From Escherichia phage P-GXEC-L2P5, in the sequence record PQ843332.1: a stretch of DNA of 64,000 nucleotides. One strand, written 5' to 3'. Positions 3,402 through 53,186 of this stretch are shown here, piece by piece (positions within the stretch are counted from its first letter, which is position 1; each line of letters begins with the position of its first letter). A model generated the notes under the pieces. It was not told the DNA's origin and ran no database searches. It saw nothing but the letters and a program-made list of their open reading frames with translations. The position numbers and the translations under genes were made by a program.

Positions 3402-3435
3402 TAAAATGGCCCTCACTACAACGTGGGGGCTTTTT

Positions 3436-4112
3436 ATGTCACAAGGTACAATCACACTAACGAAAGGAAGTAAGACCGTCACGGGCGCGGGAACGGCGTT
3501 CCTTAGCGAGATCGGGAAGGTACTCGTATTCGCCCGCATCGACGGCAACGACTACACCGGCAAAATTGCGGCATTCAACTCGAACACGGTCATTACTCTG
3601 AAAGATAACTGGGCCGGTCCGACGAAATCCGGTGCGGCATATGAGCTAATCGAAGCACACGACCCGCGATCAAACGAATGGCCCTATTACTGGCACCGAC
3701 GAAATCCGGTGCGGCATATGAGCTAATCGAAGCACACGACCCACGGTCAAACGAATGGCCCTATTACTGGCACATGCAATTGCAGGGCGGCGGCGACGTG
3801 CAGTTAGCTTTCCGGTCGGAGGAATTGCAATTCGGTAATGGCTACGGACAGAACATCGCGGACGGACCGAACGCAGAAACGAAACAGTTCCCCGTGCAAT
3901 TCGTCGGACTGACTACTGATAAGTGGTGCGACCCTAAACTGGTTTATAACTTTCTGCGCGGTCACTTCGTCAAGCCGTTTGTTGTCACCGCTCCAGATGG
4001 CGAAACAGGTTTATTCGTGGTCGAGCGTTCGAGCTTGTCGTACACTGACAACGGGCACTACACGGCAACTGTGTCCGCCACCCTTAAGACAGCTATTGGA
4101 TTCGTAAGATGA
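3436..4112 (+). CDS. minor tail protein, lambda gpM-like C-terminal domain (frame broken by duplication 3619-3772)
   Basis: ORFs 3379-3726 and 3678-4112; GGAGG-like RBS before ATG 3436; position between tape measure and gpL-like gene. Confidence 0.55.
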
Positions 4113-4897
4113 ATAAACTATATCGCGAGGCGACGCGCTTTGACCCATCGGGACGCGTTCGCCTGATTCACATTGACGCGCAGGACGTGGAGCCTGGCGA
4201 CGGCGCGATCGGCGCGGGCCATCACTATTTTCACTACTGCTTTATTCCGCACACTGCCGAGGATATTGCTGCCGCGGGCGGAGACGAGGACAAGCTAAAG
4301 CCCAAATCTATCTTCTTCGGCGGGCAGGAATTCGAATTCTGGCCCTTCGATTTGTCCGGCCTTAACTTCTCCACATCAACGGCAGCAGAACCGCAGCTAA
4401 CCATCGTTGATATTGGCGGCATAATCACCCGGCTGTCGCTGAATCACGACCAGCTACTGGGCGCGAAGGTTGAAATAATCGACACGTTTGCGAAGTTCCT
4501 GGATAACGGGTCGGATCCAGACCCGACGCAAAAACGTGTCCAGGAGTATTACATCGACTCACAGGTTGGGCGCAATCCAGGCAAGCAGATCACCTTCGCA
4601 TTATCCTCACCCGCGGATATGGAGGGGCAAGTAGTTCCCCGCCGCCAGATCATGAACATGTGCGAATGGGCGCTCAATGGGAAGTACGCCAGCGGGGACG
4701 GCTGCACGTGGAACCTTGCGAAGCCTGGCATCAAGTATTACGACGAGCGAGGTAATGAAGTCATCGCGATGAACATGGACCGATGCGGCGGCTGTTTGTC
4801 CGACTGTTATCTTCGATTTGGGCAAGGGCTTGCGGACCCTAAAGCGGCGGTGCTGGACTTCGGCGGCTTTCCGGGGTCCAGATTAATTAAGGGGTAG
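4109..4897 (+). CDS. minor tail protein, lambda gpL-like
   Basis: Intact 262 aa ORF; C-terminal Cys cluster CGGCLSDC; conserved position; ATGA overlap with upstream gene. Confidence 0.75.
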   Translation: MNKLYREATRFDPSGRVRLIHIDAQDVEPGDGAIGAGHHYFHYCFIPHTAEDIAAAGGDEDKLKPKSIFFGGQEFEFWPFDLSGLNFSTSTAAEPQLTIVDIGGIITRLSLNHDQLLGAKVEIIDTFAKFLDNGSDPDPTQKRVQEYYIDSQVGRNPGKQITFALSSPADMEGQVVPRRQIMNMCEWALNGKYASGDGCTWNLAKPGIKYYDERGNEVIAMNMDRCGGCLSDCYLRFGQGLADPKAAVLDFGGFPGSRLIKG

Positions 4898-4899
4898 TC

Positions 4900-5640
4900 A
4901 TGTTAACGAAGAAGGTTAAAAGCGATATCGCCGCACACGTCGCGGCATGTCTGCCGGAAGAAGCCTGCGGCCTGGTTGTCATGGTGGGCCGCAAACAAGT
5001 TTTTATCCCGTGCGTTAACGTATTCGAAGATCCTACCGGTGCGCGCTCGCGTAAGGACGCGTTTACAATCAGTGATACGGCCTGGATGGATGCTGAGGAT
5101 ATGGGCGATGTCGTTCGCGTAGTCCACTCACACCCAGGTCAGCGCGAGTTAACCCCGTCATTGGGTGACGTCAACGGCTGCAACGGCAGCGGCGTCGTCT
5201 GGACAATTACCAATGAGTATGGCGACTTTATCGAGATCGACCCGGAAGACCCGCCACTGGTGGGTCGCCGATTTGTTCTCGGAATTACGGATTGTTATGG
5301 CCTCGTTATGGACTGGCATAAAAAGCATGGCGTAAACCTGCCAGACTTCCGCGTACCGTACAACTGGTGGGAGACAGGCGAAAACCTGTATATGGACAAT
5401 TGGTATGGAGCGGGCTTCCGGGAGTGTGCGGAGAATACGCCAGGGGCGATGGTCATCATGCAGATTAGCGCGCCAGTGCCTAACCACGCCGGAATCTACC
5501 TTCCGGGCAACCAACTACTACACCATATCTACGGCAGCCTGTCGAGCGTGATCCCCTTCCGGGCAGGATTTTTCCGCGACAATGTGGTTAAATGGGTACG
5601 TCATAAAGACTTACCGTGGGATATCACAGAATGGCAATGA
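4900..5640 (+). CDS. tail assembly protein, lambda gpK-like (JAB/MPN + NlpC/P60 domains)
   Basis: Intact 246 aa ORF; HSHPGQRELTPSLGD (JAMM-like His motif) followed by Cys/His peptidase-like region; position after gpL-like gene. Confidence 0.8.
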   Translation: MLTKKVKSDIAAHVAACLPEEACGLVVMVGRKQVFIPCVNVFEDPTGARSRKDAFTISDTAWMDAEDMGDVVRVVHSHPGQRELTPSLGDVNGCNGSGVVWTITNEYGDFIEIDPEDPPLVGRRFVLGITDCYGLVMDWHKKHGVNLPDFRVPYNWWETGENLYMDNWYGAGFRECAENTPGAMVIMQISAPVPNHAGIYLPGNQLLHHIYGSLSSVIPFRAGFFRDNVVKWVRHKDLPWDITEWQ

Positions 5641-6248
5641 CCACATTTAAATTATACGGCGTCTTAGGGCGTCGTTTTGGTAAAGTGCACAAGCTGGATT
5701 GCTTCACCCCGGGCGAAGGTATCACAGGCCTATGCGTGAAGCTGCCTGGCTTACAGGACTTTCTAATGTCGGCCCACCTGGAAAATATTATGTTCAAGGT
5801 GCGCAAAGGCAATCACACAATGACCGGATACGACGAGTTAGGAGAGTTCCACGGCGACCGCGTAGTTACCATCGCACCGGTTATGACCGGCGCAAAACGC
5901 GGACTAGGCCAATTACTGGCGGGCGTAGCCATCGTGGTGGCGTCGTTCTACACCGGCGGGCTTGCTACTGCCGCTTTCGGAGCTTCCGCCGCGACCGCTG
6001 CCGCTATCGGTACGGCAACGTTTTCGTTCGGGATGTCGATGGCGCTGGGTGGCGTTATGCAATTGCTGTCACCGCAACCGAAAGGATTGCAGACACGGCA
6101 GGACGTGGATAACAAGGCGTCTTATGCGTTCGGCGGACCGGTAAACACGACCGCGCAAGGTACGGCACTTGGTGTATTATGGGGCGAGCGTGAGATCGGC
6201 GGCGCTATTATTTCCGCCGGAATCGTAACCGAGGACTTGAACGAATGA
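5631..6248 (+). CDS. tail assembly protein, lambda gpI-like
   Basis: ORF 5616-6248; N-terminal TFKLYGVLGRRFGK ubiquitin-like region, Gly/Ala-rich hydrophobic C-terminal half; overlaps gpK-like stop. Confidence 0.65.
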   Translation: MAMTTFKLYGVLGRRFGKVHKLDCFTPGEGITGLCVKLPGLQDFLMSAHLENIMFKVRKGNHTMTGYDELGEFHGDRVVTIAPVMTGAKRGLGQLLAGVAIVVASFYTGGLATAAFGASAATAAAIGTATFSFGMSMALGGVMQLLSPQPKGLQTRQDVDNKASYAFGGPVNTTAQGTALGVLWGEREIGGAIISAGIVTEDLNE

Positions 6249-6321
6249 CGATTATCTACGACGTCACAGGCCATAAAGGCGGCGGCGGCAAAGCCGGAAT
6301 CGTAACCGAGGACTTGAACGA

Positions 6322-9300
6322 ATGACGATTATCTACGACGTCACAGGCCATAAAGGCGGCGGCGGCAAACAGCACACCCCACAGGAGACGCCGGACAGCC
6401 TGCATTCGCTGGCTAAAATCCGCATCTTGCTCGCACTGGGCGAAGGTGAGTTCGAAGGCATTACCGACCCTAACGAATTACGGCAGCGCGTATACCTGGA
6501 CGGAACACCGATCCAGAACGCCGACCTGTCAGAAAACTTCCCCGGCGCGCGCGTGGAGTTCCGCCCAGGCACACAGCACCAGGACGTGATCCACGGATTT
6601 TCAGCGGTGGAAAGTGAGCAATCCGTAGGCGTAAAACTGGAAAACGGCACGCCGTGGGTGCGCCAGATTAACGACACCAGTCTTGACGCCGTGCGCATTC
6701 GAATCGGCATTCCGGCCCTGTACACCAACGAAGACAACGGCGACCTGGTGGGCGGGCGCATCGACTACAAAATCGTTGTGTATACGGACAACGCTGATCC
6801 GCGTGAGTTTACCTTCGCTGCCGTTGGTAAAACAATGTCGCTGTACGAGCGCGACCACCGCATCGAGTTACCGCCGAACGTGAATACCGGCTGGCGCGTG
6901 GAAGTTCACCGCACAACGGCAGATTCCACATCGGCGAAAGTGGTGAACGATATTCAGGTACAGTCCATCACTGAGATTATTGACGCCCGCCTGCGTTACC
7001 CGCTAACCGCGCTGTTGTTTGTGGAGTTCGACGCCAAAGCGTTCCAGAACATCCCGCGCGTGTCCATTAAGTGCAAAGGTCGCAAAGTTCTAATACCGAA
7101 CAACTACGACCCGATCAATCATACCTATGCCGGGTACTGGGACGGCACGTTTAAACGCGCATGGACGGATAACCCTGCGTGGCACTGGTACGATATTTGT
7201 ATTACTGAGCGCTTCGGCCTCGGTCGGTTAAACGCGCATGGACGGATAACCCTGCGTGGCACTGGTATGATATTTGTATTACTGAGCGCTTCGGCCTCGG
7301 TCGCCGGATCAAGCCGCAAATGCTAAACAGATATGCGCTCTACCAGATTGCGAAGCGCTGCGATCAACTGGTCAGCGACGGCAACGGCGGGCAGGAAATC
7401 CGATTTAAGAATGATATGTACATCCAGTCGCAGACCGACGCCTGGACCGTGCTTAAGGATTTAGCCGCCATCTTTGCCGGTATGACCTGGTGGGGCAACC
7501 AGATGTTGAATATTGTAAGCGATCAGCCGGTCGCAGCGGTATCGCACACTATCACCAACGCCTCGGTCATTGATGGTCGATTCGACTACGCGTCAGGGAG
7601 CCAGAAAACTCGGTATTCCACGTTCGCTGTAGCATACGGCAACCCGAAGAACCACTATGAAGATGCCATTGCTACGGGACAGCGTGTCGAACTGGTACGC
7701 CGCCATAAGATTAACCGTCTGGATATAACGGCGATCGGCTGTACGCGTGAGTCAGAAGCGCAACGCCGCGGGCACTGGGCGCTAATCTCCAACCAGCTTG
7801 ACCAGCAAGTTAGCTTTAAGGTTGGCATGGAGGGACTTTTCTTTATTCCGGGTAGTGTAGTCGCGATCGCCGATACAAACATTTCTGGCGGCTTCGAGAC
7901 ACGCGGCGGTCGCCTGTTGTCAGATCCTGGCACGCGGACTGTGCTGAACACAGACAGCGAAATCACGTTCCGCCCTGGGGATAAATTCCTGGTACGCACC
8001 GATAGCGGTAATGTGGAGACTCGCGAGATTGCCAGCGTCAACGGCAACAAGGTTACGCTAAAAACCGCACTGGACGCCGACCCGATTCCTGATCAGCCGT
8101 TTTGCGTCGATGGCAACGATATCCAGTTGCAGAAGTTCCGCATCACCGACCTGGAATATGACGACTCTACCAGCACTTTTTCAGTGCGCGGGATCGAATA
8201 CAACGATAGCAAATATGATGCCGTTGATAATGGCGCTCGCCTTGACCCAGGCATCTTTACGCAAGTTCCTGACGGCGTAATGAAGGGGCCGGAGTCCGTG
8301 ACCATTACCCCGTCGCAGATTTCATCGCAAGGCCAGCTAATCACCAACGTGGATATTGTGTTCCCGCCGGTGAAGGATGCCGTTGTTTATGAGATCCAGT
8401 GGCGACGTACCAGCTTGCAGAATATGGCGGTACAGTGGGGAAACGACTGGGTAAACATCCCCCGCACGGCATCGAACGGCGCGCACATCCCTAACGTGTT
8501 CTCCGGTAACTACCAAGCGCGCGTCCGCGCGATCGGTATGGGCGAGATTTCATCCCCGTGGGTGTCGTCCGCTATCACGCCGGTGGAAGGTCGTCTCGGC
8601 GGTCTTAACGCGCCTATCATCACCAACGCGATTTCGGGCCTTCACCAAATTTTGTGGAAGTGGAACCACAACAACGCCGCGACGGATATTTCGTACACCG
8701 AGCTTGAAGTTCGCAAGACGGGTGAAACGGAATGGAAATTCCTAACCAACGTCCCATACCCGGGGTCGGAGTATGCGCAAACGTCGCTGGAGTTCGGCAT
8801 CTATCAGCAGTTGCGCGCCCGTGTAGCGGATAAAATCGGCAACCTGTCGGACTGGTCGGCCCCGTTTGAAGGGCAGGTGAGCAGCAGTTGCGCGCCCGTG
8901 TCGCGGATAAAATCGGCAACCTGTCGGACTGGTCGGCCCCGTTTGAAGGGCAGGTGAGTGACAATGTTGACGAGTACATGAAGGGGCTGGACGACGAGTT
9001 CTTGACTTCTGAGGACGGTAAACGCTTCCAGGAAGCGATCGACACCATGCCGCAAGGCATTTATGAGGCTATGCTCACCGACGCACAGCAATTGTTTAAC
9101 GCCCGCGCCGAGTACAAGGGGATTTATGCAGAAATCTCGGTCGCGTATAACGTGGCGGCAGATGCCCACCAGGCGGTAGCGCAACTGGAAACGTTGATCG
9201 GTACTCGCCTTGACGATGCGGAAGCGGCAATCCACACGTTGCAGACCGCGCAAAGCACGCACGAGCAAGCGTTCGCCCAGTACCAACAAACTGTTGCCGC

Positions 9301-9826
9301 TAAGTTCGGTCAGCAGTCCGCCGCGATCGAGCAGAAGATGACGTCCTCGTTTAACCACTCCGGTGGTAGCGCCACATACAGCCTTAAGGCGGGTGTGACG
9401 TATAACGGTACTTACTATGATGCGGGTATGCAGCTTTCCGTTGTAACGTCGGGCAGCGCGGTTAAATCTCGTATCGCGTTCAAAGCCGACCAGTTCTACA
9501 TCATGCACCCATCTAATGGGTCGCTTTCGTCCGCGTTCATCGTCGACGGAGGACAGGTGTACATCGACACGGCACGAATCAAGAACGCGTCCATTAACTT
9601 CGCACAGATCACGGACACGCTGCGGTCTAATAACTTCGTTGCGGGGTCGTCAGGGTGGAACCTGCCTAAATCGGGTAACGCGGAATTGAACAACGTAACG
9701 GTCCGCGGCAACCTGTACGCCACATCGGGTAACTTCGGGTTTTCTGGTGGGACCGTGACGATCGACAAGACAGGCGTAAACGTGCCGTTACCTGGCGGGG
9801 GGAGGGTGAAAGTCGGGACGTGGTAA
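6322..9826 (+). CDS. host specificity / tail tip protein, lambda gpJ-like (frame broken by duplications near 7151-7304 and 8806-8959; start codon duplicated at 6245 and 6322)
   Basis: ORFs 6322-7326, 7320-8957 and 8888-9826 are contiguous, about 1,100 aa after removing duplicates; conserved gpJ-like N-terminus MTIIYDVTGHKGGGGKQHTP; position after gpI-like gene. Confidence 0.8.
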
Positions 9827-9831
9827 ATGCG

Positions 9832-9853
9832 AAGGGGCCATCCGGCCCCTTTT
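9832..9853 (+). terminator. rho-independent terminator (aaggggccatccggcccctttt), usable on both strands
   Basis: GC stem, short loop, T-run; sits between convergent genes. Confidence 0.6.
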
Positions 9854-10818
9854 CAATACATATTCGGGATGACGAGTAGCGGGGTGGGTACGGCAATATT
9901 TTTACCTGGCATCTGGAATTGCTGCCGTGAGTAGTTGCCGATGACGCGGTTTTTAGCGACGCGCACATTATTACCCGCCATGCGTATTCCGTTCATGCGG
10001 ACGTGGTTATAGCCCCCGTTGTTCTGAATCAGCGCGCCGGTGTATGAAAGCTGGATCAGGCTGTTTCCTATATTCTGGTCGCCCGTGCCGATGTTAATCG
10101 TGCGGTCATATACGAACGGCTTGTTCACCGTCGAGAACGTGACCTGATTCTGGTTATTTGTCATAGTGATCCCGGCCCCTGGCGTGGGTGGTGTATTGTT
10201 GAATATGACAAGGTCCATGTCCACCGAAGCCGCCACATCGTCGATGCCACCATAGGCCGCGTTGCGGACGATAATACTGCCACCATCGAAGCCTACTGAT
10301 ACGTTGCCGTCATCCCAGCGGGCGAACGGGACACCGCTAACGGGCAAGGCCATACTACCGTTGACGCGTACTCGCTGTGCGTATCGGCAGGTCATTAGCT
10401 TAGACACGTTGGATATGGCGGTGAAGTCCGTCGAGTTCTCCACCAGTAAGCCCGCGTTGCGTGAACCAACCGGCAGCACTTCCATTATGACGCCAGCCCA
10501 TTGTGGTAAGCCAGAGTACGCGCCATACGCATCCTCCCCGCGCAGGGTGATACCACTATTCCCGTTGCGGGTAACAGACGTAACGTAAAACGGGTCGGGA
10601 ATTACCAGGGTCTGGTCGAATACCTCAATCACTTCTACCGGGCGAGTGAGCGCGACGACGACCTGCGACCCCTCCGTAAGCGGGGTGTTAATGGTTAGCG
10701 TCTTGTTGGACTGTGCCCGCTGGTTAAAGCTGGTGCAGTATGCTGGCGCGCGAAGCCCTGCGGTGATCTCCATGCGCGGTCTTCCGTCGTTGTAGTCGAT
10801 AAGTATTCCAGCACCCAT
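9853..10818 (-). CDS. hypothetical protein, Asn/Gly-rich with beta-helix-like repeats; co-transcribed with upstream lipoprotein
   Basis: Intact 324 aa ORF; start overlaps lipoprotein stop; repeated N-x-x-(V/I)-x-N segments; absent from second genome copy. Confidence 0.45.
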   Translation of the reverse strand: MGAGILIDYNDGRPRMEITAGLRAPAYCTSFNQRAQSNKTLTINTPLTEGSQVVVALTRPVEVIEVFDQTLVIPDPFYVTSVTRNGNSGITLRGEDAYGAYSGLPQWAGVIMEVLPVGSRNAGLLVENSTDFTAISNVSKLMTCRYAQRVRVNGSMALPVSGVPFARWDDGNVSVGFDGGSIIVRNAAYGGIDDVAASVDMDLVIFNNTPPTPGAGITMTNNQNQVTFSTVNKPFVYDRTINIGTGDQNIGNSLIQLSYTGALIQNNGGYNHVRMNGIRMAGNNVRVAKNRVIGNYSRQQFQMPGKNIAVPTPLLVIPNMY

Positions 10819-10820
10819 TA

Positions 10821-11042
10821 TTACCACTCCCGTGATTTAACTGATACTGTGCCTGAGAAATTGCCGTCGCTATCTGAAGACAGCCCAGTGAATCGCATGT
10901 CCACATCTCCTGCCGGGACTTTTTGCCCATCAACGTAGCGCAACATGCAGCTACCGTACGCAACCGTAATGCACTCGCCGTTGTTGCGTTCTACGGCGCA
11001 ACCGGATAAAAGAACCGCACAAATCATAATTAAAGTTTTCAT
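10821..11042 (-). CDS. small lipoprotein, candidate Llp/Cor-like superinfection exclusion protein
   Basis: Signal peptide MKTLIMICAVLLSGC with lipobox LSGC; AGGGGA RBS; lies between gpJ-like gene and tail fibre; mature part differs completely from paralogue at 61449-61667. Confidence 0.5.
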   Translation of the reverse strand: MKTLIMICAVLLSGCAVERNNGECITVAYGSCMLRYVDGQKVPAGDVDMRFTGLSSDSDGNFSGTVSVKSREW

Positions 11043-11122
11043 GGTATCATCCCCTATATTTGGTTGAGTTTTAGTATTACACCGCTCAACCAGGATTGCA
11101 ACCAATTTAAGAGGATTTAGCT

Positions 11123-12901
11123 ATGGCAGCGGGTACGCTATCCGTAACGAACAATAGCAAGGCTGTAGTAGGGGTCGGCACAACGTTTACCGCGTTTAAA
11201 GCGGGCGACTTCTTAACGCTGGTGGTAGGACAAGTCCCATACACCGTGGCAATCGCGTCCATTGAAAGCGCAACCGCGCTCACGCTGGTACTGCCGTTCG
11301 ACGGCCCAACGGCAACCGGCCTTGCGTGGGATGGCGTTAAGCGCGATACCATGTCGCTGGCAACGATGGGCGTTACCGTACAGGCCCAAAAAGCATTGCG
11401 CTTGATGATTGCAGATGAAAACAACTGGCGTGCAATCTTCGGCGATGCTGAAGAAATCACAGTCACGCTCCCGAACGGGCAAGTTATGCAGGGTATGTCG
11501 TGGGGCTACCTGTCGTCTTTGCTGAAGGAAGTAGACCCCGTTGAGATGCGCAACCTGCAACAACAAGCCGCCGCATCGGAAGCAGCCGCGCAAGGATTCC
11601 GTAACGAGGCGGAAGGCTTCAAGAACGACGCCAACACCATCAAGACGCAGACCAGCCAACTTAAGGCAGATACGCAGGCTATCAAGGACCAAACGAATCA
11701 GATCAAGACTGACACTGGCGTTATTCGTGATGAAGCCAATACCGCGAAGGAGGACGCGCAATCTGCCCGCACTGCCGCGCAAGGATTTCGCAATGAGGCT
11801 GAACAATTCGCTAATAGTGTTAACCCGGAAAACCTACTTGCGAAGGCCAACAACTTAAGTGATGTTGCGGATGTGGCTGTGGCGCGCGAAAACATTGGCG
11901 TAGACCGCCTAACGCAAAACATAACCAGCGGCGAAACACAAATCAGGACTGCGGCGAAGAATAAATGGATCTTCGTTAAGGAAAATGGCGACTGGGGCGG
12001 GTGGGATAATGCCAACAATAAAGCCATGCCGCTGCCGATTGCATTCGGTGGTACGGGGCGCGGCGATAACGTCGCCGAGTTCCGCCAATTCAAATCAAAC
12101 GGCGACACCCAAGATGGGTTAATCATTACGCAGAACGGGTCTGGATTTGGTGGTGTATGCTGGGGGGATTCCGCCAATAAAGTACGCTGGCGCATGGGGA
12201 TTAACGACGCCGCGGGTAATTTTAAGTTGCACTCATATGACGCGTCGGGCGCGTACCGCGATACCTTTATGGAGATCTCTGGATCGGGGATAAGCGGCAT
12301 GGTGTGTCATCGAGATATCATGGTCCGCCCAACAGAGACAGTTCCAGTGTTGTCTTTCGTCCTAAACAACGGAAAAGCTACCGTCCCGGCTGGTAACGTC
12401 CGCACGATGTGGGATACGGTTAACATCAATAGTAATATAATCTATAAATATTTTGAGAAGGGAGACGGCACTGGCTTCACAGTCAACTGGCCCTCATCTG
12501 GTGGTGTTATTGCCCTCCAGGGTACATCAGGAAGGGACTTTAAGAAAGATATTACCGACGCGGACGTTACAGAAGCGGTTGCACGCATTGAACAAATGCG
12601 CATGGTGCGCTACGTGTATAAGGACGATGTGCAGGAGCGCGTCCGCTTCGGCATCATTGCCGAGGAAGCAGAAGAGATTGCGCCTCAATACATCAAACAC
12701 CGTGAGGAGACGTACGATGTGGAGGTGGACCCCGAGACTAACGCCATCGTCGGGGGTAAGACGCGCGACCGTCCGTCGGTAGACGTTAACCCTATCGTGA
12801 TGGACTTGATGGGGTGCGCACAATATGCGATCGCTGAGTGTAAACGCCTGGCGGCGGAAGTGGAGGATTTGAAAGCCGAGATCGCGGCGTTGAAGAAATA
12901 A
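11123..12901 (+). CDS. tail fibre protein with C-terminal intramolecular chaperone (peptidase S74-like) domain
   Basis: Intact 592 aa ORF; coiled repeat region; C-terminal ...RFGIIAEEAEEIAPQYIK...DLKAEIAALKK resembles the auto-cleaving chaperone domain of endosialidase and L-shaped tail fibres. Confidence 0.7.
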   Translation: MAAGTLSVTNNSKAVVGVGTTFTAFKAGDFLTLVVGQVPYTVAIASIESATALTLVLPFDGPTATGLAWDGVKRDTMSLATMGVTVQAQKALRLMIADENNWRAIFGDAEEITVTLPNGQVMQGMSWGYLSSLLKEVDPVEMRNLQQQAAASEAAAQGFRNEAEGFKNDANTIKTQTSQLKADTQAIKDQTNQIKTDTGVIRDEANTAKEDAQSARTAAQGFRNEAEQFANSVNPENLLAKANNLSDVADVAVARENIGVDRLTQNITSGETQIRTAAKNKWIFVKENGDWGGWDNANNKAMPLPIAFGGTGRGDNVAEFRQFKSNGDTQDGLIITQNGSGFGGVCWGDSANKVRWRMGINDAAGNFKLHSYDASGAYRDTFMEISGSGISGMVCHRDIMVRPTETVPVLSFVLNNGKATVPAGNVRTMWDTVNINSNIIYKYFEKGDGTGFTVNWPSSGGVIALQGTSGRDFKKDITDADVTEAVARIEQMRMVRYVYKDDVQERVRFGIIAEEAEEIAPQYIKHREETYDVEVDPETNAIVGGKTRDRPSVDVNPIVMDLMGCAQYAIAECKRLAAEVEDLKAEIAALKK

Positions 12902-12905
12902 ATAG

Positions 12906-12930
12906 AAGGGGCCATGCGGCCCCTTTTTTA
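12906..12930 (+). terminator. rho-independent terminator (aaggggccatgcggcccctttttta), bidirectional
   Basis: Perfect GC stem plus T-run between convergent genes. Confidence 0.65.
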
Positions 12931-13580
12931 GTTTGAGTTTTCCCAGTCCATTTTGCGCCGCACCAGATGGCTTTCGTAATATTCCTTGCCCTCAACTTCC
13001 ACTAAGGGCCAATCGTTAACAATCACGTACGGTTCCGCAATATCCTCAATCACGCCGTGCGCGCTTTGCGGCCCTAACGACACGCCCACCAGGATAACAC
13101 CGGCAACACGACGGGCAAGATACTCACGAGCGCAGCGCGCCTCTACCAGTCCGCGACGGATGCCGCTGGTGGCCTTAACTTCGTAGGTCCATACGGCATC
13201 GATCACATGCTCGCGGAAGTCGGGACCGGACTTCACCTTGCGCTTGCCGACCATGATGATATCGCCGCGACGGCATCGATCACATGCTCGCGGAAGTCGG
13301 GACCGGACTTCACCTTGCGCTTGCCGACCATGATGATATCGCCGCGGTCAATGGTATTGGCGCTAAACAGGCCGGTACGCATGAGCAAGCCTTGAGGAAT
13401 ACAACTGCGCCCTCCTGCCTGCCCTTCAAGATACATGCCTGCAAACATCTCGCCCAGCACACCGACCAGTCGGCTTTGCTTGCACGCGTCAGACTTTAAG
13501 CGCCACTGGTCAAACTCGATGCTTGCTATCATTGCCGCCAGGTGGAATTGTTTACCGGATATTTCATATTCGCCGTACAT
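12928..13580 (-). CDS. hypothetical protein, possible PD-(D/E)xK-type nuclease fold (frame broken by duplication near 13195-13345)
   Basis: ORFs 13233-13580 and 12928-13254 are contiguous; GDII...YEVK resembles D...(E)xK; homologue at 63627-64000. Confidence 0.3.
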
Positions 13581-27445: not shown

Positions 27446-28040
27446 TTAATCTTCCAGTTCGAAATAAGTTTCGACGATTTCTTTTAGCTCTTTGTGGAAG
27501 TCTTCGACGTCGTCATCTTCCAGCTTAGCGATTGATTTGATCTCGAACGATTCCAGAAGGTCGTCGAATTCGTCGTTCGCATCGTCGTCATCGCCACCGG
27601 CGATAATCGCGGCATACTGTTTGATTTCGTCGCGCATCTCCGCCAGCGGATCGGCATCTTTCTTACCTTTGCCTTTCGCCGGTGCTTTCTTAGACTTAGC
27701 CGGTTTTTCGTCTTCGGCATCGGCATCGTCGTCGTCATCTTCTACGACTTCTTTTTTGGCCTTACCTTTCGCCGGTGCTTTTTTGGTTTTCGCCGGTGCT
27801 TCGTCTTCAGCGTCGTCATCTTCTACGACTTCTTTTTTTTACCTTTCGCCGGTGCTTTTTTGGTTTTCGCCGGGGCTTCGTCTTCAGCGTCGTCATCTTC
27901 TACGACTTCTTTTTTGGCCTTAGACGGCTTCTTGTCTTCCTGTTTACCAACGGCAGCGCCAACGGTTTCATAATGCTTAGCGATGATTTCCAGTGCTACT
28001 ACGCCGCGAGTGATCAGGTTTACGATTTGCTCAAACATGG
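27446..28040 (-). CDS. highly acidic protein with Lys-rich repeats (frame broken by duplication near 27740-27880)
   Basis: MFEQIVNLITRGVVALEIIAKHYE... then repeated AKKEVVEDDD / PAKTKKAPAKGKK blocks and a D/E-rich C-terminus; GGAGA RBS; first gene of the minus-strand operon. Confidence 0.45.
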
Positions 28041-28065
28041 TATATCTCCGATTGGTTAAGTTTAG

Positions 28066-28516
28066 GTGTCGACCATTAACTTCGTCGGTGGCCTTAACAT
28101 AGTGCCAGGTTACGCGTTCTCCCTTTCGGGTAGTGGACCTGGTTATATAATCACGGTTGGGAATCCTGACACTTCGATCCGGCCCCTGCGTTGCCCCTCT
28201 CCAGTTTGCGTCCTGCATCCTGTCGACGAGGTGAATATTAGATTGGTTGCAGAAGGGAGTCAACAACTAATTTCAAAAAAAAAGCGCCGAAGCAAAATGC
28301 GACGGCGCTAACCAATAAGAGACAATGAGACGGGAGTATTATTACACGCGTGCGCGCCCGTTTCAATATTCCAAAGGAGTTGACACCACCAATAAGAGAC
28401 AATGAGACGGGAGTATTATTACACGCGTGCGCGCCCGTTTCAATATCCCAAAGGAGTTGACACCCTGCGGTTTTAGGTGTAGTTTCATTGGTCATTAACC
28501 AACCGGAGACAGAATA
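28066..28516. promoter_or_regulatory. divergent intergenic control region between minus-strand replication operon and plus-strand regulator/primase operon
   Basis: About 450 bp without a convincing ORF; TTGACA (28453-28458), 17-bp spacer, TAGTTT upstream of ATG 28517; AGATTGGTTGCA at 28240-28251; minus-strand hairpin plus T9 at about 28272-28305; internal 77-bp duplication. Confidence 0.5.
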
Positions 28517-28846
28517 ATGAATATCAACGACGCAATCGAAATGCTAACGAAGACTGTCTGCAGTGAGACTAGCCGGTCCTGGGCGTATACCGATGCCGTG
28601 GGGGCGGTGCTATTTGAAATCGAACGTCTGCGACTTACCGAAAAAGAATTGCGCGCCAGGCTGGAATTACTCAACGGTACGGCAGCCAGCAAGCTGCAAA
28701 AGCACAATGAAGAAATGGAAGAATACAAAAAACAGGTTATCCGTCTACGTGAGGAAGGTAAATCCTGGGCTATGATCGCCGAGCTAACCGGAATCAACCA
28801 GAGCACCGTGCGCTCCTGGGTACGCAATAATAAAACTTCGAAGTAA
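28517..28846 (+). CDS. HTH DNA-binding protein, putative transcriptional regulator
   Basis: 109 aa; C-terminal GKSWAMIAELTGINQSTVRSWVRNN helix-turn-helix; coiled-coil middle. Confidence 0.5.
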   Translation: MNINDAIEMLTKTVCSETSRSWAYTDAVGAVLFEIERLRLTEKELRARLELLNGTAASKLQKHNEEMEEYKKQVIRLREEGKSWAMIAELTGINQSTVRSWVRNNKTSK

Positions 28847-28856: not shown

Positions 28857-31352
28857 ATGAGCTTAATTAAATTCGCTGTAACACGACCCGCTAAAAAAGG
28901 CGAAAAAGCCAGGGCGGAAAACTTCCAGATGACCACCGATGAATTTTTCGAATTTATCAATGATGCGAAAGAAATCGCGAAAAAGCCAGGGCGGAAAACT
29001 TCCAGATGACCACCGATGAATTTTTCGAATTTATCAATGACGCGAAAGAAATATCATCGGTGCATATCAACAAGACCGAGGATAAAGCGGAGTATGCGCG
29101 CCGCAAGCGTAAGGCCGATGGCATCGTAGCGTATACCAGTGACGGCTTACGCCGCAAGACCAGCGCGGTGGACCGCTCGATCCTGTTCTTTGATATTGAC
29201 CGCACCGACACTCGCACCTTACGCCGCTGCCGTAAGGCGTTCATTGACGCGGGTCTGGAACACGTATTCCACACAACCACCGGCGACCGCCACCCGCTTA
29301 AAGGCGGCACGCGTTGCGCTCGCTTCCTGGTACTCACTGATAAGCCGGTCCCGGCTGAAGACCTGGGCCGTGTCCAGTATGCGCTATTACATCAACTTGG
29401 TCTGTCGGATGTGGACTTCGACGATTGCACGAAAGACACAAACCGCCTGATGTACCTGCCGCACCAGCAATCGGTTATTAAGTGCCACTACGGCAAACGT
29501 GCCCGCGTCCGTCGTCTGCTTCGCCTGGCGGATACGCTTGGCGTGGAGAAGGAAGAAGTACGCCGCGAGCTTACCCAGGGCGACGACGCAGTGGCGGACG
29601 GGATTCTGGACTGGTGCTTCCAGGCAGGATTCGAGGAGTTATCTTCCGGTCGCGGTTATGAAGTGCCGTGCCCGAACGAACATCTGCACAGCGGCGAAGG
29701 GTCGACGGCTATCATGGTCAAGGATGGCGAGATCCGTTTCAAGTGTATGCACACCGGCAACGAGTGTTGCTCTGAGCTGAACAGACACCAGCACCTGGCG
29801 CTACGTCTTATCGGGATACCGGACCACCTGAACGTCGAGCCGCACAACATGTCACGTAAGCAAATCGCCGCCATCCTCCCAGGGCTGGACGACGAGGAAG
29901 TCGAATCCTTATATGAACATATTGTTGATGCGGTTGGCGACGGCGAAGAATACGGCGTGTGCACCGATGCGGATCTGGATAACGAGCCGGTCGCACTGTT
30001 GTTGATGCAGTTGGCGACGGCGAAGAATACGGCGTGTGCACCGATGCGGATCTGGATAACGAGCCGGTCGCACTATTCAGTAAGCACGACCCGATCATCG
30101 AAGGCCTGGTCAACTTCAAATCGACCTGGTACATGGCTGGCGAGTCGAACATCGGTAAATCGTTCTACGTGCTGGGCCAAATGGGCGCGGTTGCCGCGGG
30201 GATTCCGTTCGGCGGTGCGAAGGTCGTCCAGTCTCATTGCTTCTATTTCGACGCGGAAGGTGGCGAAGCCTCCAACCAGCGTAAGGAAGCATTGCAGATC
30301 AAATATGAGCACGACCTGGACAAGCTGCACATTATTGACCTGCAATCACGCGGCTGGGATATCACCAGCAAATCAGGCTTGCGTGAAGTTATCAGCTTCA
30401 TCAACCGCACCGCTAACGGCGAGCCGGTTGGCCTGGTGGCGTTCGACTCACTCAACCAGACTGTTGCGCTGCGGTCCGCCGATGCAAAACCGTTCGACGA
30501 GAACAACGCCAGCGATATGGGCGAAGTGGTCAAAGCGCTGAAGGCCATTGCGGAAAATACAGGCGGCAGTGCGGGCGTCATCCACCACCCGGCGAAAGGT
30601 GCAAACGGCCGCAGATCTCCCCGTGGGTCCGGCGCGCTGCATGGTGCTGTCGATTCTGCGTTCTTCCTGGAGCAACCGGACGACAACCAGCCAGGTCAAT
30701 TGAACCTGTATCACGAAAAGGCACGTAACGGCATCAAGCAAGCGCCGCGCGGCTTCGTCCTGCTCAAGTGCAAGGTTAAGGTGGATCTCCGCAAGTCCGA
30801 AGCGTTCGAAGCCCACCAGTCCACCAGCACCGGGCCAGACTTCGGCGATGTGGTTGCCGGTTGGGACGTCAAACCAATTGCGTCCACCCCGCGCGACGAG
30901 ACTCTATACCTCGTACCGGTAGCCCTGGCACCGTTCGCGATAGAACAGGCGAAGGCGGCGGGCAAAGCCGCAGTTAAGGAAGAGAACACCGCCGGTCCGC
31001 GCAACGAAAAAGAGAAAGTGCTTTATGCGGCCCTGGAAAAACTGATGGCAGATAACCCTGACCATACTGGATTCAGTAAATCGGCAATTGTACGCCAGGC
31101 GGGACTCGCTAAGGGTGGCACTTCGACGAAGGCAATAGACGATATGGTCGAGCGCGGCGTGATTGGTTTCTATACAGATCCGCACACCGGGGCCATATAT
31201 GGGTCGTCGAATTTAGTCATCAAATCTGATATCCCCTGATTGGTTTCTATACAGACCCGCACACCGGGGCCATATATGGGTCGTCGAATTTAGTCATCAA
31301 ATCGGAGATCCCCATAACGCTTTCGGCGACCGATGACGACCTGAAAGACTAA
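28857..31352 (+). CDS. primase-helicase: primase-polymerase-like N domain, zinc-binding region, RecA-like C domain (frame broken by duplications near 28910-29050, 29940-30070 and 31170-31290)
   Basis: ILFFDIDR and VFHTTTGDRH primase-like motifs; Cys/His cluster; Walker A GESNIGKS and Walker B VAFDSLN. Confidence 0.7.
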
Positions 31353-35336: not shown

Positions 35337-36556
35337 ATGCACCCGCAAACTAAAATTACCGATGAGCAATTGATCGCAGAAATTCAGGAAGGGACTACAG
35401 TTAAAGAGATTGCGAAGAAGTACGGCATCGCACTTCGAAATGTCTATATGCGCAAAGCCCGCCTGTCTAAAAAGGGGATTGGTCACGGCAATGATGCAGT
35501 GATCCGTAAGCGCGTTGCCGATGGTTTTGGTGTTAAGCGCGTATCGGCCCTGGTACGCGGCAATGGCGAAGAGGTCATGTCGTGGGTCATCACTGAGCAG
35601 GACAAAGAGCGCCAACTCGAAGCCATGCGCGCTGTTGCAATGGCGAAGAGGTCATGTCGTGGGTCATCACTGAGCAGGACAAGGAGCGCCAACTCGAAGC
35701 CATGCGCGCTGTTGTCGAGGGTATGAACAGCGAAATCACACCGGCAGCGCCCGTAAACGCCACGCCAGTCCCGATTCAGGCGCTCGACTTGCTCAACCTG
35801 TACACAGTGTCCGACTTCCACCTGGGTATGCTGGCGTGGGGCGAGGAGACTGGCGAAGACTGGGATATGGCGATTGCTGAAGACCTGTTCTACCGCTGGT
35901 TTGTCGAAGCCTTCGCCCGCGCACCGGACGCAGGAACTGCCGTTATCAATATCCTCGGGGATATGGCCCACTTTGATAGCCTTGATGCCGTCACACCGGC
36001 AAGCGGTCACGTACTGGACGCCGACACACGATACCAGAAGTTGGTCCGCTATATGATTCGCATGGTGCGCAACGTGGTTGACCTGGCGCTGCAAAAACAC
36101 CACAAAGTAAAACTGCTAATCGTCCAGGGTAATCATGACGAGTCGGGCATGATTTGGCTTGCTGAGATGTTCAATACCCTGTATGAGAACGAGCCGCGCG
36201 TCGATGTGGACACGTCCCCGGACGTCTACAAAATGGTGCAGCACGGTAAGACCACGCTATTTTTCCACCACGGGCACAAAGCGCGATTCGATGTTATCGA
36301 GCAGGTTATGATCGCTAAATTCAGACAGGCGTTCGGGGCGAGCGAATACAGCTACGCGCACGTAGGCCATTTGCACCACCAGAAGATTGTTGAATCCCGC
36401 AACATGATTGTCGAACAGCACAGGACGCTCGCAGCGAAAGACGCCTACGCCAGTCGTGGCGGCTGGATGAGCGGTCGCAGCGCAAACGTCATCACCTATA
36501 GCGCCAACTACGGAGAAGTAGCGCGCTTAACCATTAGCCCGGAAATGTTGAAGTAA
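35337..36556 (+). CDS. metallophosphoesterase (calcineurin-like) with N-terminal HTH domain (frame broken by duplication near 35560-35710)
   Basis: N-terminal TVKEIAKKYGIALRNVYMRKARL; phosphoesterase motifs ILGDMAHFDS, VQGNHDE, FFHHGHK, HVGHLHH. Confidence 0.55.
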
Positions 36557-49432: not shown

Positions 49433-49893
49433 GGAGCGGGACAGGCGGGACGTCCCGTTTTGTCCCGCCACCACTAAACCGCATATATACTCACTTTCAT
49501 TGCATAAATTAAAAGCGGGACAGGGGTGCTGTCCCGCTTTGTCCCGCCCCCAAAATGTGAATATCTATTCGATTTTCGTGCATAAAACAAACGGGACAAA
49601 AAGCGGGACAGAATTGGGCGGGACAAAGCGGGACAGCACCCCTGTCCCCGCCAGTGCTGCCGCGGGTTTTAGCCGATCGGGACAGGCGGGACAAAGCCCA
49701 GTCTTTCAGACTAGACGGGGGGTCTGTCACCCCCCTCGTCTGAGACTGAATAAGGTTTGTTTTAAATTCGCTGATACAATGACCGACGGCAACTGCATAA
49801 AAAGGGCCCCCCTCGTCTGAGACTGAATAAGGTTTGTTTTAAATTCGCTGATACAATGACCGACGGCAACTGCATAAAAAGGGGGACTGCATA
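49433..49893. repeat. non-coding repeat module R3, second-copy counterpart of R1
   Basis: Same GCGGGACA arrays, inverted pair GCGGGACAGGGGTGCTGTCCCGC, hairpin and TGCATAAA boxes; ORFs called here are spurious. Confidence 0.7.
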
Positions 49894-52800
49894 ATGGCAG
49901 ATCAGGCAGCGGGCATCACGCTCAAGGCGGACGTCGCGCAAATTAAAACGGCGAATACTGTGCTGGACACATTTGCGCAGAAATCCGAGAACACAGAACA
50001 GAAAGTCAAAAAATTAAACGACACCCTCGGCAAGTCGAAAAAGGTCACTGGCGACGCCGCGGGCGGAATGGAAAAGTTAGCGACTGAATCGCAGCGCGCC
50101 GCCGACGGCATGACGAAACAGGAGCGACTAGCCAGCCGATTAGGCATGTCGACCAAGAACCTGGGATTCGCATCGCCGCCGACGGCATGACGAAACAGGA
50201 GCGACTCGCCAGCCGATTAGGCATGTCGACCAAAAACCTGGGATTCGCATCGCGGAACGCCGCATTCCAGTTACAGGATATCGCGGTTACGCTTGAGATG
50301 GGTATGCCGGTGCACCGCGTCATGCTTCAGCAGCTACCGCAGCTTACTGGGGCGTTTGGCGGACTGGGAAACACGCTGCATTATGTCGTCGGCACACTCG
50401 GCCCGTTAGGGATTGGCATCGCTGCATTAACGGCAACGCTCGGCGTAGGGGTGGCAATTACGACCCGCGCAGAGAACCAGGTGGCGGCGCTTAATAAGAC
50501 GCTGGCGCTGTCCGGTAATATTTCAGGCCTGACAGCTAACCAGATCCTTGTGCTGTCCGAGAACGCCGAGCGCATGGGCGGGTCATTTCGCAAGACGCGT
50601 GACACAATCCAGGCGCTGGCGGCGGCGGGTGTGAAAGCGGGTGGTGACTTTGGCGCATTGGCTAAGGTAGTGAATGACTTTGCGAAGGTGTCCAGCCAGC
50701 CGATCGAGGATGTGGTGGCGGCGGTGGCGAAGCTGTCAAGAAGGTAGTGAATGACTTCGCGAAGGTGTCCAGCCAGCCGATCGAGGATGTGGTAGCGGCG
50801 GTGGCGAAGCTGTCAACCGACCCCGTTGGCGGACTGCGTGCGCTGGCGGATAAGTATCACGTCGTAAACGAAGCGCAGATCCAGCAGGTACAGTCGCTCG
50901 TTGATGCGGGTCGTGAGACAGACGCAGTTGCGTTGGCTAACAAAACAGCCGCTGCGTCGTTCACCAGCATGACCAATGAGATCAAGGCGAACATGGGTAC
51001 GCTTGAGCGATCTATGAACGTCGTCACATCGGCAGCCAAATCAATGTGGGACGCTATCCTGGATGTGGGTCGCGCGCAGTCCTCCAATGAGTCCGAGATG
51101 AAAGCGCGCGAATCACTCCAGCGCATGACCACGGCTTACTATGCCGAGATGAAAGCGGTAAACGCTGCCGGTGGGGTAATGACTGAAGCGCACTGCAGCG
51201 GCTGACCACGGCTTACTATGCCGAGATGAAAGCGGTAAACGCTGCCGGTGGGGTAATGACTGAAGCGCAGAAAGCACGTATTAACATGCTTTACAGCGAA
51301 CTGGTCGCCCAGGAAAAAGTGGTGGCGTCGCTCACCCTGCGTAACCGTGCGGAGCGAGACAACGCCCGCGCCGCAGATGAATCCGCAAAGGCGAACGAGG
51401 AGGCCAACCGCACCGCCCGCGACCGCGCCGCGTTTGAAAAGGAGTACGCAACTAACGCGAAGAAGCGCGCCGACGAGATCGCCCGCCTCAATTTGCTGAA
51501 TAAGCGCGGCGTTATTGATGAGAAAGAGCTTGCCGAGGCGGTTAAGCAGGTAAACGAGCGTTACAAAGACCCGGCCCCGAAGAAGGCCGCGGCTGTTCGC
51601 GTGGATGCCGGTATGAAAATGCTGGAAGTCGCACGGAGCGAACTGGCCCAGCTCCGAAAAAGGCCGCGGCTGTTCGCGTGGATGCCGGTATGAAAATGCT
51701 GGAAGTCGCACGGAGCGAACTGGCCCAGCTTCGAGAATCCGGCAAGCAGATCGAAGCCAACGCGTCTACGCAGACCCGCACGCAACGCGCGCAAGCGGCC
51801 TTAAACAAGCTGATCGCCGACAATGAGCAGTTAATCGCCGCAAGCAAAGAAAGAGCGCTAACGGCAGCCGAAAAGCAGCAATTAGTCGAGTTCGGGCGCG
51901 TGAAGGAAGTCCGCGAGCAGATCGTCGAAGAAGCCAAATTGCTGGACGCGAAAGAGAAGCAGGTTAAGGCGCACGCGCAGATCGATGCCTTCGTTAAGAA
52001 CCAGAACGCCGAACTATGCTGGATGCGAAAGAGCAGCAGGTTAAGGCGCACGCGCAGATCGATGCCTTCGTTAAGAACCAGAACGCCGAACTAAAAGCCA
52101 CCGCCGCGGGGTATGCGCTTTCCACTCGCGAAGCGGCAAACCTGCGCGAAGAATTGCAGCTAATCGACCGCCTGAAGCGTGTAGGCGCTAACGATACCGA
52201 TATTGACAAGGCGGTGTCTAAGCTGCGAGAATGCAGCTAATTGACCGCCTGAAGCGGGTTGGCGCTAACGATACCGATATTGATAAGGCGGTGTCTAAGC
52301 TGCGAGAAGTGCAGGAAGCACAGACCGGCGCTAACGCCTCGTTATGGGATGGATTCAGTCGCGGGCTTAAGGATAGCGTGGATGAAATGGGTAACGGATA
52401 TACGCAGATGGCGTCTCTCACGAAATTCACATTCAGCGCTATGCAGGACACGATGAACGAGTTTTTCGAGACTGGCAAGCTGAACGCAAAGGATATGGTT
52501 AAGTCCATCCTGAGCGAATTAATCAAGCTGGCTACCTCGCAGGCGTTCAAGTCCATCGTTAGCGCTTTCGGTGGCGACGGCGGCAAAAACGGATTGTTCG
52601 GCGCTATCTTCTCGGGCCTCACCAAGAATGCGGACGGCGGAGCGTACGTGGCGACGGCGGCAAAAACGGATTGTTCGGCGCTATCTTCTCGGGCCTCACT
52701 AAGAATGCGGACGGCGGAGCGTACACCGGAGGCAATCTCGCGGCCTATTCGGGGCAAGTGGTGAGCCAGCCTACCTTTTTCAGTTATGGCGTCCAGGCGT

Positions 52801-53152: not shown

Positions 53153-53186
53153 TAAAATGGCCCTCACTACAACGTGGGGGCTTTTT

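Follow-up and report, generated by a model that had tools for sequence, protein, structure and literature searches.

Short RNAs encoded in phage control regions are known in several forms. The c4 RNA of P1/P7 is a short phage RNA that acts in trans, through imperfect complementarity to a nearby ribosome-binding region in the same control region. The sar RNA of P22 and the OOP RNA of lambda are 60–80 nt long, have their own promoter and intrinsic terminator, and down-regulate a neighbouring regulatory gene. DicF of the Qin prophage, like other small RNAs of the Hfq type, is about 55 nt long, with a single-stranded, Shine-Dalgarno-targeting 5′ end, a terminator hairpin and a long U tail, and the lambda 6S RNA (PR′-tR′) is a constitutive short transcript in which a strong promoter is followed by a strong terminator with no gene in between. 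Here, we describe a candidate small RNA of 57 nt that resembles each of these in part. It is encoded on the minus strand between two divergent operons of Escherichia phage P-GXEC-L2P5, in a stretch of 64,000 nt from sequence record PQ843332.1 (hereafter, the window), and it shares its control region with a second element, a structured leader RNA of about 160 nt.

c4 matures from a longer transcript and pairs by two loops, whereas the candidate would be a primary transcript with a linear 5′ end, and the phage studied here is virulent whereas those of c4 are temperate; the C4 family of Rfam was not matched, either at the gathering score or at any E value up to 10. sar and OOP are true cis-antisense RNAs, fully complementary to their targets, but here the predicted transcripts do not overlap and the complementarity is imperfect and limited to 11–15 nt. 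DicF derives from a polycistronic RNA by processing and acts on the host ftsZ mRNA, whereas the candidate shows no sequence or Rfam similarity and has no homologue in 5,426 Escherichia coli genomes. Lastly, and unlike the lambda 6S arrangement, the operon downstream of the candidate is made up of early genes under a promoter of their own.

A predicted 57-nt RNA with its own promoter and terminator

The window belongs to a Dhillonvirus, an HK578-like virulent siphophage: positions 27900–28700 are 99.3% identical to Shigella phage EP23 (megablast), and about 170 other records are 90–97% identical to the same interval. EP23 (44,077 bp) is the closest complete genome and is free of the assembly artefacts described below; it served as the reference for genome-wide counts.

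The original prediction, made from the letters of the window, drew attention to a minus-strand hairpin followed by nine T, with no minus-strand gene feeding into it. Both are present, 3 nt from where they had been placed (28275–28308 instead of 28272–28305): the plus strand reads A9 followed by GCGCCGAAGCAAAATGCGACGGCGC, and the minus strand GCGCCGUCGCAUUUUGCUUCGGCGC followed by U9. The 25-nt hairpin consists of 6 bp, a 2x2 internal loop and 3 bp, and its energy is about −14 to −16 kcal/mol (−16.2 in the minimum free energy fold). No minus-strand gene was found upstream of it among the open reading frames (ORFs) or in the EP23 annotation, the next genes to the right being on the plus strand. 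In our own survey of the EP23 genome this is the sole hairpin-preceded run of at least eight T on either strand; the other terminator-like sites of EP23 lie at gene or operon ends and have T6–7, the U-tract of the small-RNA terminator (U8–13) being the longest among them. It is the strongest intrinsic terminator of the genome. A generic terminator scan missed the hairpin because its rules allow only loops of 3–8 nt.

Promoter and terminator prediction had been suggested as a way to check for a transcript, and both signals were found: besides the terminator recovered in the EP23 survey, a promoter scan revealed a near-consensus sigma-70 promoter about 30 nt upstream of the terminator unit, TTGAAA-17-TGtAATAAT, with 10 of 12 matches and an extended −10 TG. 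The unit was compared across 23 distinct Dhillonvirus sequences. The promoter boxes and their 17-nt spacing are kept throughout, except for TTGAAC in CHD5UKE2 and a 15-nt spacer in a metagenomic contig (L175). The 5–7 nt that follow the −10 box vary in both sequence and length (ACTCC, AATTCC, ACTTTC, AATCA, AAAACCA and others), and invariance resumes exactly at the predicted G+1, 7–8 nt downstream of the −10 box, the predicted 5′ end being the G of GUCUCAUUG. Thus, the conserved promoter and terminator define an RNA of 57 nt, from 28331 to 28275. Its 5′ part, the 23 nt GUCUCAUUGUCUCUUAUUGGUUA, the first 22 of which are unpaired in the minimum free energy fold, is invariant in all sequences compared except those of the LM40P1/Ioannina type, in which one base is deleted; it is 100% identical in nine of the ten phages compared. 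The adjacent gene for a helix-turn-helix (HTH) protein is 80–96% identical at the nucleotide level where this could be measured, and is replaced outright in CHD5UKE2. With a conserved sigma-70 promoter at the right distance, variation that falls exactly in the interval between −10 and +1, and a hairpin that stays paired through two compensatory changes, the short non-coding transcript put forward in the original prediction is upheld in silico, and we consider it likely, from these sequence features, that the 57-nt RNA is made.

The promoter spacer, CGGGCGCGCACGCGTGT (28344–28360, minus strand), holds GCGCGCACGCGTGT, a 14-nt perfect alternation of purines and pyrimidines that is prone to form Z-DNA, and the substitutions seen there in relatives (A to G, C to T) all preserve the alternation; this hints at a supercoiling-sensitive promoter.

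The unit occurs at full length in 154 GenBank records of Dhillonvirus-type phages. None of them labels it as an RNA; the feature given in one record is a ‘terminator’. No counterpart of the small RNA was detected in the 5,426 complete E. coli genomes, and Rfam gave no match to it, at gathering thresholds over the whole window or at E≤10 over the region. A weak RsaE-like match (E 0.19) was discarded: it is driven by a C/U-rich stretch and the terminator, and spans an artefactual duplication. Patterns of the 5′ part recovered only contigs of Dhillonvirus size, and tblastn searches with the HTH protein found only Dhillonviruses; with relatives restricted to this genus, the depth of the covariation analysis could not be raised. 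In the literature searched, which included searches with literal sequence strings, neither the small RNA nor the structured leader was found to be described, and no Dhillonvirus transcriptome was found.

Part of the region as assembled is not genuine. Across the window, Tandem Repeats Finder detected about 80 two-copy tandem duplications of exactly 77 nt, with copies 94–100% identical (examples in Table 1). These are assembly artefacts and look like, or at least fit, untrimmed k=77 overlaps. They disrupt reading frames, including those of the helicase-primase (ORFs 29006–30541 and 30034–31239) and of the first leftward gene, and create false repeats. The window is longer than the phage genome of about 44 kb and wraps round, positions 79–13154 recurring at 49444–63853; the offsets between the two passes differ by multiples of 77 (49289, 49366, 49674, 49751 ... 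50625), and the two passes carry different numbers of duplications. One duplication falls in the control region, where its second copy holds an artefactual small-RNA promoter (28443 to 28415) as well as a −35 box in proper register with the rightward −10. The duplicated −35 box reported in the original prediction is therefore not biological, since the 28311–28387 segment is single-copy in EP23 and in all other relatives compared. Similarly, the length of about 450 bp given for the divergent spacer has to be corrected: the real intergenic region is 402 nt long (EP23 36079–36480), and 477 nt in the window as assembled. Such systematic duplications would mislead any reading of the window from its sequence only.

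Table 1. Positions of the features discussed in the text (window coordinates; for minus-strand elements, ‘to’ follows the direction of the strand).
Feature	Position	Strand	Description
Candidate small RNA, 57 nt	28275..28331	-	5′ part 28331 to 28309; hairpin 28308 to 28284; U9 tail 28283 to 28275
Small-RNA promoter	28338..28366	-	−35 TTGAAA 28366 to 28361; 17-nt spacer; TGT and −10 AATAAT 28343 to 28338
Predicted target 1, Shine-Dalgarno region of first leftward gene	28045..28058	-	UAACCAAUCGGAGA; 12/14 complementary; −17.9 kcal/mol
Predicted target 2, Shine-Dalgarno region of first rightward gene	28496..28509	+	UAACCAACCGGAGA; 11/14 complementary and one G-U; −18.2 kcal/mol
Structured leader RNA, ~160 nt	28068..28227	-	Covariance-model match 28053–28234, 182 bits, E 7e-41
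Leftward operon promoter	28235..28263	-	TTGACT 28263 to 28258; 17 nt; TAATAT 28240 to 28235; promoter scan, conserved
Rightward early promoter	28457..28485	+	TTGACA 28457–28462; 17 nt; TAGTTT 28480–28485; predicted transcription start site near 28491
First leftward gene	27446..28039	-	ATG at 28039; acidic protein, EP23p44 homologue, PHROG 3127; frame broken by artefactual 77-nt duplication
First rightward gene	28517..28846	+	ATG at 28517; 109-aa helix-turn-helix protein EP23p45; Pfam HTH_23 and Sigma70_r4_2; PHROG 9366
Artefactual second 77-nt copy	28388–28464		Copy of 28311–28387; repeats small-RNA promoter and part of 5′ region
77-nt duplications, examples	28311–28464, 27762–27915, 28895–29048, 29922–30074		

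To the left, the EP23p44-type gene heads an operon of about 12.4 kb that codes, in the EP23 annotation, for an exonuclease, a single-strand annealing protein, a DNA polymerase, a helicase, a ligase and a methyltransferase. Besides the artefactual duplication, this first gene contains genuine imperfect repeats of K/E/D-rich segments with a 93-nt spacing (27669–27915, minus strand); three plus-strand ‘terminator-like’ matches of the scan fall in this repeat and are not terminators. To the right, a helicase-primase gene lies 3′ of the EP23p45 homologue; HTH proteins of the EP23p45 type appear in GenBank records under different names (transposase, resolvase or ‘nuclease inhibitor gamma’). This gene context, a replication and recombination operon on one side and an HTH/helicase-primase operon on the other, identifies the region as an early replication control region. 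The rightward promoter was not listed by the scan tool because its −10 matches only three of six positions; its hexamers and 17-nt spacing are kept, with a diverged spacer sequence, in CHD5UKE2 (TAGTAT) and LM40P1. On the minus strand, the order of elements is the small-RNA promoter, the 57-nt unit with its terminator, the leftward operon promoter, the 160-nt leader, an A/C/U-rich linker and the ribosome-binding site.

Predicted pairing with two ribosome-binding sites

When the 64-kb window was searched with the complement of the small RNA's 5′ part, the two Shine-Dalgarno regions that flank the control region came out as the best non-self matches (Table 1). Among the 57 translation-initiation regions of EP23 (mean −11.7 kcal/mol, standard deviation 3.4) they rank second and third, and when the small RNA was shuffled, none of 1000 versions matched both sites and five of 1000 matched either. 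Several alleles of the rightward site exist: EP23 carries CCGGAGACAG, Sponge CAGGAGACUG, Envy and JLBYU37 CUGGGGGCAG, and rolling UAGGAGACAG, and in CHD5UKE2 an unrelated gene start, GGGACAAGACAAUGAG, takes its place. A predicted duplex is kept in all of these, at −16.4 to −23.1 kcal/mol, the latter value being that of phage rolling (site UAACCAAUAGGAGACA).

We propose a model in which the host RNA polymerase would transcribe the 57-nt RNA, whose open, invariant and anti-Shine-Dalgarno-like 5′ end, UGUCUCUUAUUGGUUA, would pair in trans with the sequence UAACCAAYNGGAGA at both ribosome-binding sites. Pairing would lower the translation of the first gene of both operons, and would thereby tie the two arms of early expression together. 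As judged from the complementarity, such a trans-acting anti-Shine-Dalgarno RNA, damping the first gene of both early operons, may be the mechanism of the small RNA, a proposal that we rate somewhat below an even chance. The broader explanation, in which the small-RNA unit and its pairing in trans are combined with a separate structured-leader module, is the best overall and, in our view, stands at an even chance of being right.

Several observations count against this interpretation. The promoter, the +1 position and the small RNA itself are all predictions. The whole control region is highly conserved and sequence diversity is shallow, so that the invariance of the 5′ part is not a specific proof of a role at the RNA level. 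The flanking sites are not the best of the genome by raw duplex energy: the initiation region of p41 comes first, at −18.9 kcal/mol, that of p33 scores −17.6 kcal/mol, several sites outside initiation regions score down to −23.8 kcal/mol, and the CUCU core of the small RNA fits many Shine-Dalgarno sequences of the GGAGA or GGAGACA type. The sequence TAACCAA occurs only four times in EP23, three of the four copies being those of the two ribosome-binding sites and of the small-RNA gene, and it shares AACCAA with an operator-like motif, GCAACCAA; from its rarity and this overlap, the boxes could be protein-binding sites, or the small-RNA gene could be a relic of a duplicated ribosome-binding site. 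Covariation analysis in relatives was also suggested in the original prediction. The hairpin is conserved, and 100% paired in all four sequence variants known among the relatives; that of the LM40P1/Ioannina type carries two compensatory changes, G-C to U-A and G-C to C-G, in addition to A-U to G-U. However, with only four variants this is effectively a single independent compensatory event, which 36 of 500 shuffles equalled, and the support from covariation is for that reason modest.

The operator-like motif has a wider distribution. The copy listed in the original prediction, AGATTGGTTGCA, is indeed present at 28240–28251 and lies in the spacer of the leftward promoter, on whose strand the motif reads TGCAACCAATCT (28251 to 28240). 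Its family is strongly over-represented in the window, with 13 matches at up to two mismatches against 4.0±1.8 expected, and GCAACCAA has 17 copies in EP23 against 2.0±1.3 expected, about 8-fold. Besides 28240–28251, sites of the motif TGCAACCAAT are found at 11097, 14352/14362 (a palindrome), 16335/16352, 31752/31783, 32339, 35142/35165, 43160 and 61722; some copies follow a −35 box directly within a promoter spacer, others form direct pairs, and one perfect palindrome, TGCAACCAACCTATTGGTTGCA, occurs. TGCAACCAAT is probably the operator of a phage regulator, possibly of the HTH protein encoded next door.

The region could thus be read entirely at the level of DNA. The unit would then have no function as an RNA: the promoters would be placed back to back, for instance to couple the weak rightward promoter to supercoiling, the terminator would insulate the leftward promoter, and the TAACCAA boxes would be bound, as DNA, by a regulator of the phage, for example the HTH protein. 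The abundance of GCAACCAA-type boxes, about 8-fold over expectation and found in promoter spacers and palindromes, is in line with this view, as are the clustering of three of the four genomic TAACCAA copies in the control region, the distance of only 13 bp between two divergent −35 boxes, the purine/pyrimidine alternation kept by every spacer substitution, and a conservation that extends over the entire control region without singling out its transcribed part. An insulator, however, needs no invariant 23-nt transcribed segment starting exactly at the predicted +1. Moreover, the third TAACCAA box is oriented so that the RNA is complementary to both mRNAs, the match runs on through the Shine-Dalgarno GAGA(CA), outside the GCAACCAA motif, and TAACCAA differs from the operator-like consensus at its two defining positions (GC). 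We regard an explanation by DNA elements only as unlikely. The trans-pairing model has also to be set against the possibility that the RNA is real but base-pairs with host mRNAs or with other phage mRNAs, and not with its neighbours. The fit of the anti-Shine-Dalgarno-like core to GGAGACA-type sites (p41, p33) and the non-initiation sites of lower energy speak for other targets, but the flanking sites keep their complementarity across divergent alleles, and we find it improbable that the neighbours are not the targets.

Equally improbable, in our estimate, is that the short transcript is a promoter-proximal terminated leader through which the leftward operon is controlled by antitermination or attenuation, in the manner of lambda 6S/Q or N/nut. 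A strong promoter with a strong terminator within 57 nt, co-directional with a 12-kb operon, would suit such a scheme, and so would a boxA-like GUCUCUUA, which agrees with lambda CGCUCUUA at six of eight positions (compared by eye) and lies 7 nt before the hairpin, itself a terminator. But the genes of the leftward operon, which are early replication and recombination genes and not late ones, are preceded by a conserved sigma-70 promoter of their own, downstream of the terminator; the leftward operon of EP23 showed no other intrinsic terminator; and the two proteins screened, p44 and p45, revealed nothing Q- or N-like. The original prediction placed the transcript antisense to the leader of the rightward regulator gene, and a unit on the opposite strand near that gene would invite this reading. 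The predicted rightward start site, however, lies beyond the start of the small RNA (28331), 160 nt to its right in the window and 83 nt in the real genome, and the search for a plus-strand promoter left of the unit gave none; the two predicted transcripts are back to back and diverge, the rightward one starting outside 28275–28331, so that a cis-antisense role fails and is very improbable. Lastly, some GenBank records annotate a small protein here: pipelines have called ORFs across the unit as gp49 of PaulFeyerabend, as gp39 of CHD5UKE2 and as an extended ORF in Ioannina (WFD55466). Yet 1-nt indels between −10 and +1 in Sponge, Envy, CHD5UKE2 and LM40P1, and a 1-nt deletion in the 5′ part of the LM40P1 RNA, together shift every frame, the called ORFs run through the terminator, and no Shine-Dalgarno sequence lies at a suitable distance. 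Because of these frame-shifting indels the small ORFs on both strands are rejected as coding, and we give a protein product hardly any credence.

A structured leader RNA shared by unrelated siphophages

The largest occupant of the region, overlooked in the original prediction, is the structured leader that follows the leftward operon promoter. It is closed by a stem, P1 (GUCGAC/GUCGAC, 28227 to 28222 with 28073 to 28068), and continues with a hairpin, P2, which has GGA in its loop, and with a long-range helix that has a 6x6 purine-rich internal loop and encloses two hairpin domains. RNAalifold assigned 31 pairs on 18 leader sequences, and a covariance model, R1, was built from that alignment. 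The model found exactly one copy per phage in 45 loci, at 142–203 bits; its scores in unrelated viral DNA (0.95 Mb) did not exceed 14.8 bits. A 15-mer pattern, AGGCYACCGACGAAG, gave about 115 chance loci, which were reused as a negative control; a 17-mer match (L028) was likewise dismissed as chance.

Covariation in the leader is extensive. Across 37 distinct sequences, 99.2% of the cells in the 31 pairs are paired, compared to 30–47% with slid partners; 14 pairs changed on both sides, against two to five in the slid controls, and the covariation score was 0.385, against at most 0.07. P1 and P2, which MAFFT misaligned, covary lineage by lineage in at least six lineages. P1 is found as GUCGAC/GUCGAC, GACGGGC/GCCCGUC, GGGCGGCG/CGCCGCCC, AGACGG/CCGUCU, GACGGGUG/CACCUGUC and GGCAG/CUGCC, and P2 as GCGGCAA-GGA-UUGCUGC, GUGGCAA-GGA-UUGCUAC, AGCUAUA-AGGA-UAUAGCU and UGC-AGGAC-GCA, the loop of P2 containing GGA in every lineage. 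The junctions GGAGAGG, CCCAACCGUGA, AGAACGC and CCGACGAAG are invariant. Rfam 15 gave no match to the leader, at the gathering score over the window, at E≤10 over 28068–28227 or at E≤1 with four diverse members; the leader is absent from all 5,426 complete E. coli genomes, and its core sequence is printed in no paper of the literature searched. The leader is a well-supported structured RNA family that is described in no source searched.

Sensitive searches with the EP23 intergenic region matched unrelated phages over 50–150 nt, always in unannotated gaps. Carriers include Warwickvirus (tunus, swan01), the Klebsiella drexlervirus KMI8, Sortsnevirus IME279, Jilinvirus Arya, phage BUCT618, Changchunvirus PHB17, the Tempevirinae phage Motto and Bas97, and the family is found in virulent siphophages of five or more classified lineages and of several that are unclassified. 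Pattern scans recovered phage-sized contigs only, about 20 in IMG/VR and 15 in metagenomes, and matches were obtained in 171 phage records of GenBank. A search of 185,579 species genomes of bacteria and archaea gave a single match, an IME279-like copy (197 bits) on a phage-sized scaffold of 42,764 bp (QFQS01000013.1, ‘Cereibacter sphaeroides MAG’), probably a phage contig mis-binned into a metagenome-assembled genome (MAG). The leader of Motto, the recorded host of which is Pseudomonas aeruginosa, scores 151 bits; either the leader reaches beyond phages of Enterobacteriaceae or the host label is doubtful. Under the leader, Bas97_0052 and the ‘hypothetical protein’ features of about 15 listed records are short or extended ORFs called over non-coding RNA.

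In each phage the leader is co-oriented with the flanking genes, and in most lineages it starts about 10–12 nt after a −10-like box (TATAGT, CATAAT, TATTAT or TAATAT). Downstream of it come an A/C/U-rich linker of about 13–30 nt, a Shine-Dalgarno sequence and an ORF, the proteins encoded there being unrelated between phages. The nucleotides immediately 3′ of P1 (28067 to 28060 in the window; also in L003, L004, L013, L173, L174 and L165) read ACCA, GCCA or ACCU in most lineages and are followed by an A/U-rich stretch with UAAC, a flank that resembles a tRNA-like NCCA end or an exonuclease stop; in spite of this NCCA-like tail in many leader copies, ARAGORN found no tRNA or tmRNA.

Five Dhillonviruses (JLBYU37, Envy, rolling, CHD5UKE2 and LM40P1) lack the leader and all of them keep the small RNA, which makes the leader an accessory cassette independent of the small RNA. 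In the leader-less Dhillonviruses (L030–L034, L175 and L177), a short sequence stands in its place at the start of the leftward transcript. Phages of the LM40P1/Ioannina type have a small hairpin there, GUCG-AAA-CGAC, and it looks as if the leader cassette replaced the loop of a 5′ stem. Sponge (L029) shows a partial internal duplication at the 5′ junction of the cassette.

Possible roles of the leader and significance of the two RNAs

With regard to function, our leading guess, and a doubtful one, is that the leader would act in cis at the head of early transcripts, as a domain that engages conserved host machinery; it might act like put on RNA polymerase or Rho, or recruit the ribosome or CsrA. 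Its independence of the downstream gene, its fixed distance from the promoter, its invariant junctions and its occurrence only in phages that use the host polymerase argue for such a role. The P1-closed ends and the ACC(A/U) tail suggest an alternative, a stable decoy RNA released from the transcript.

The nearest parallel is the put RNA of HK022, which is also a promoter-proximal structured RNA, heads early operons in a siphophage that uses the host polymerase and is indifferent to the downstream gene. put, however, is about 70 nt long with two hairpins, whereas the leader has 160 nt, is closed by P1 and contains five helical elements. Homology between the two was discarded: model R1 found nothing at the put sites and only a 14-bit match inside a tail gene of HK022. 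A put-like antitermination is also weakened by the EP23 leftward operon, in which no internal intrinsic terminators were found. Riboswitch aptamers, too, are 5′ leader domains closed by a P1 stem with invariant junction nucleotides. In the leader, however, no terminator lies between P1 and the start codon, and inspection by eye found no segment that would sequester the Shine-Dalgarno sequence; the lack of such an expression platform, together with the unrelated downstream genes, argues against a classical riboswitch, and no Rfam riboswitch was matched. P2, which displays GGA in its loop (GCAGGAUGC), recalls the CAGGAUG motif of CsrB and of the CsrA ligands obtained by systematic evolution of ligands by exponential enrichment (SELEX), but only one loop-exposed GGA is conserved in the leader and no Csr family of Rfam was matched. 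A GGA is part of the Shine-Dalgarno sequence in Dhillonvirus, BUCT618, L014 and L022 and is missing from it in Arya, KMI8 and tunus.

As a more speculative extension, which we put forward with little confidence, the leader could represent an undescribed class of phage accessory RNA, a horizontally mobile cassette of promoter plus structured RNA that heads early transcripts, found here beside the 57-nt RNA as a dual-arm anti-Shine-Dalgarno regulator. The leader would then act autonomously on conserved host machinery or on a conserved signal, the candidates being RNA polymerase, the ribosome, CsrA, the sensing of a ligand, or a stable decoy.

To our knowledge, hardly any regulatory RNA has been characterised in virulent coliphages other than T4 and T7. 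Dhillonviruses are part of the BASEL collection, and the SECphi4 and SECphi18 isolates belong to the same genus; the region offers two testable candidates for regulatory RNAs in phages that are already used as laboratory tools. It also calls for a correction of the annotation, since several GenBank records call spurious ORFs over both RNAs. If it is true that the 57-nt RNA represses both first genes, it would be a compact post-transcriptional timer for the replication genes of a lytic phage. The structured leader has the stronger comparative support, with conservation and covariation of riboswitch grade and no Rfam family, and it has been swapped between phage genera that are not related, although sister phages can dispense with it, a pattern typical of accessory host-takeover or counter-defence functions.

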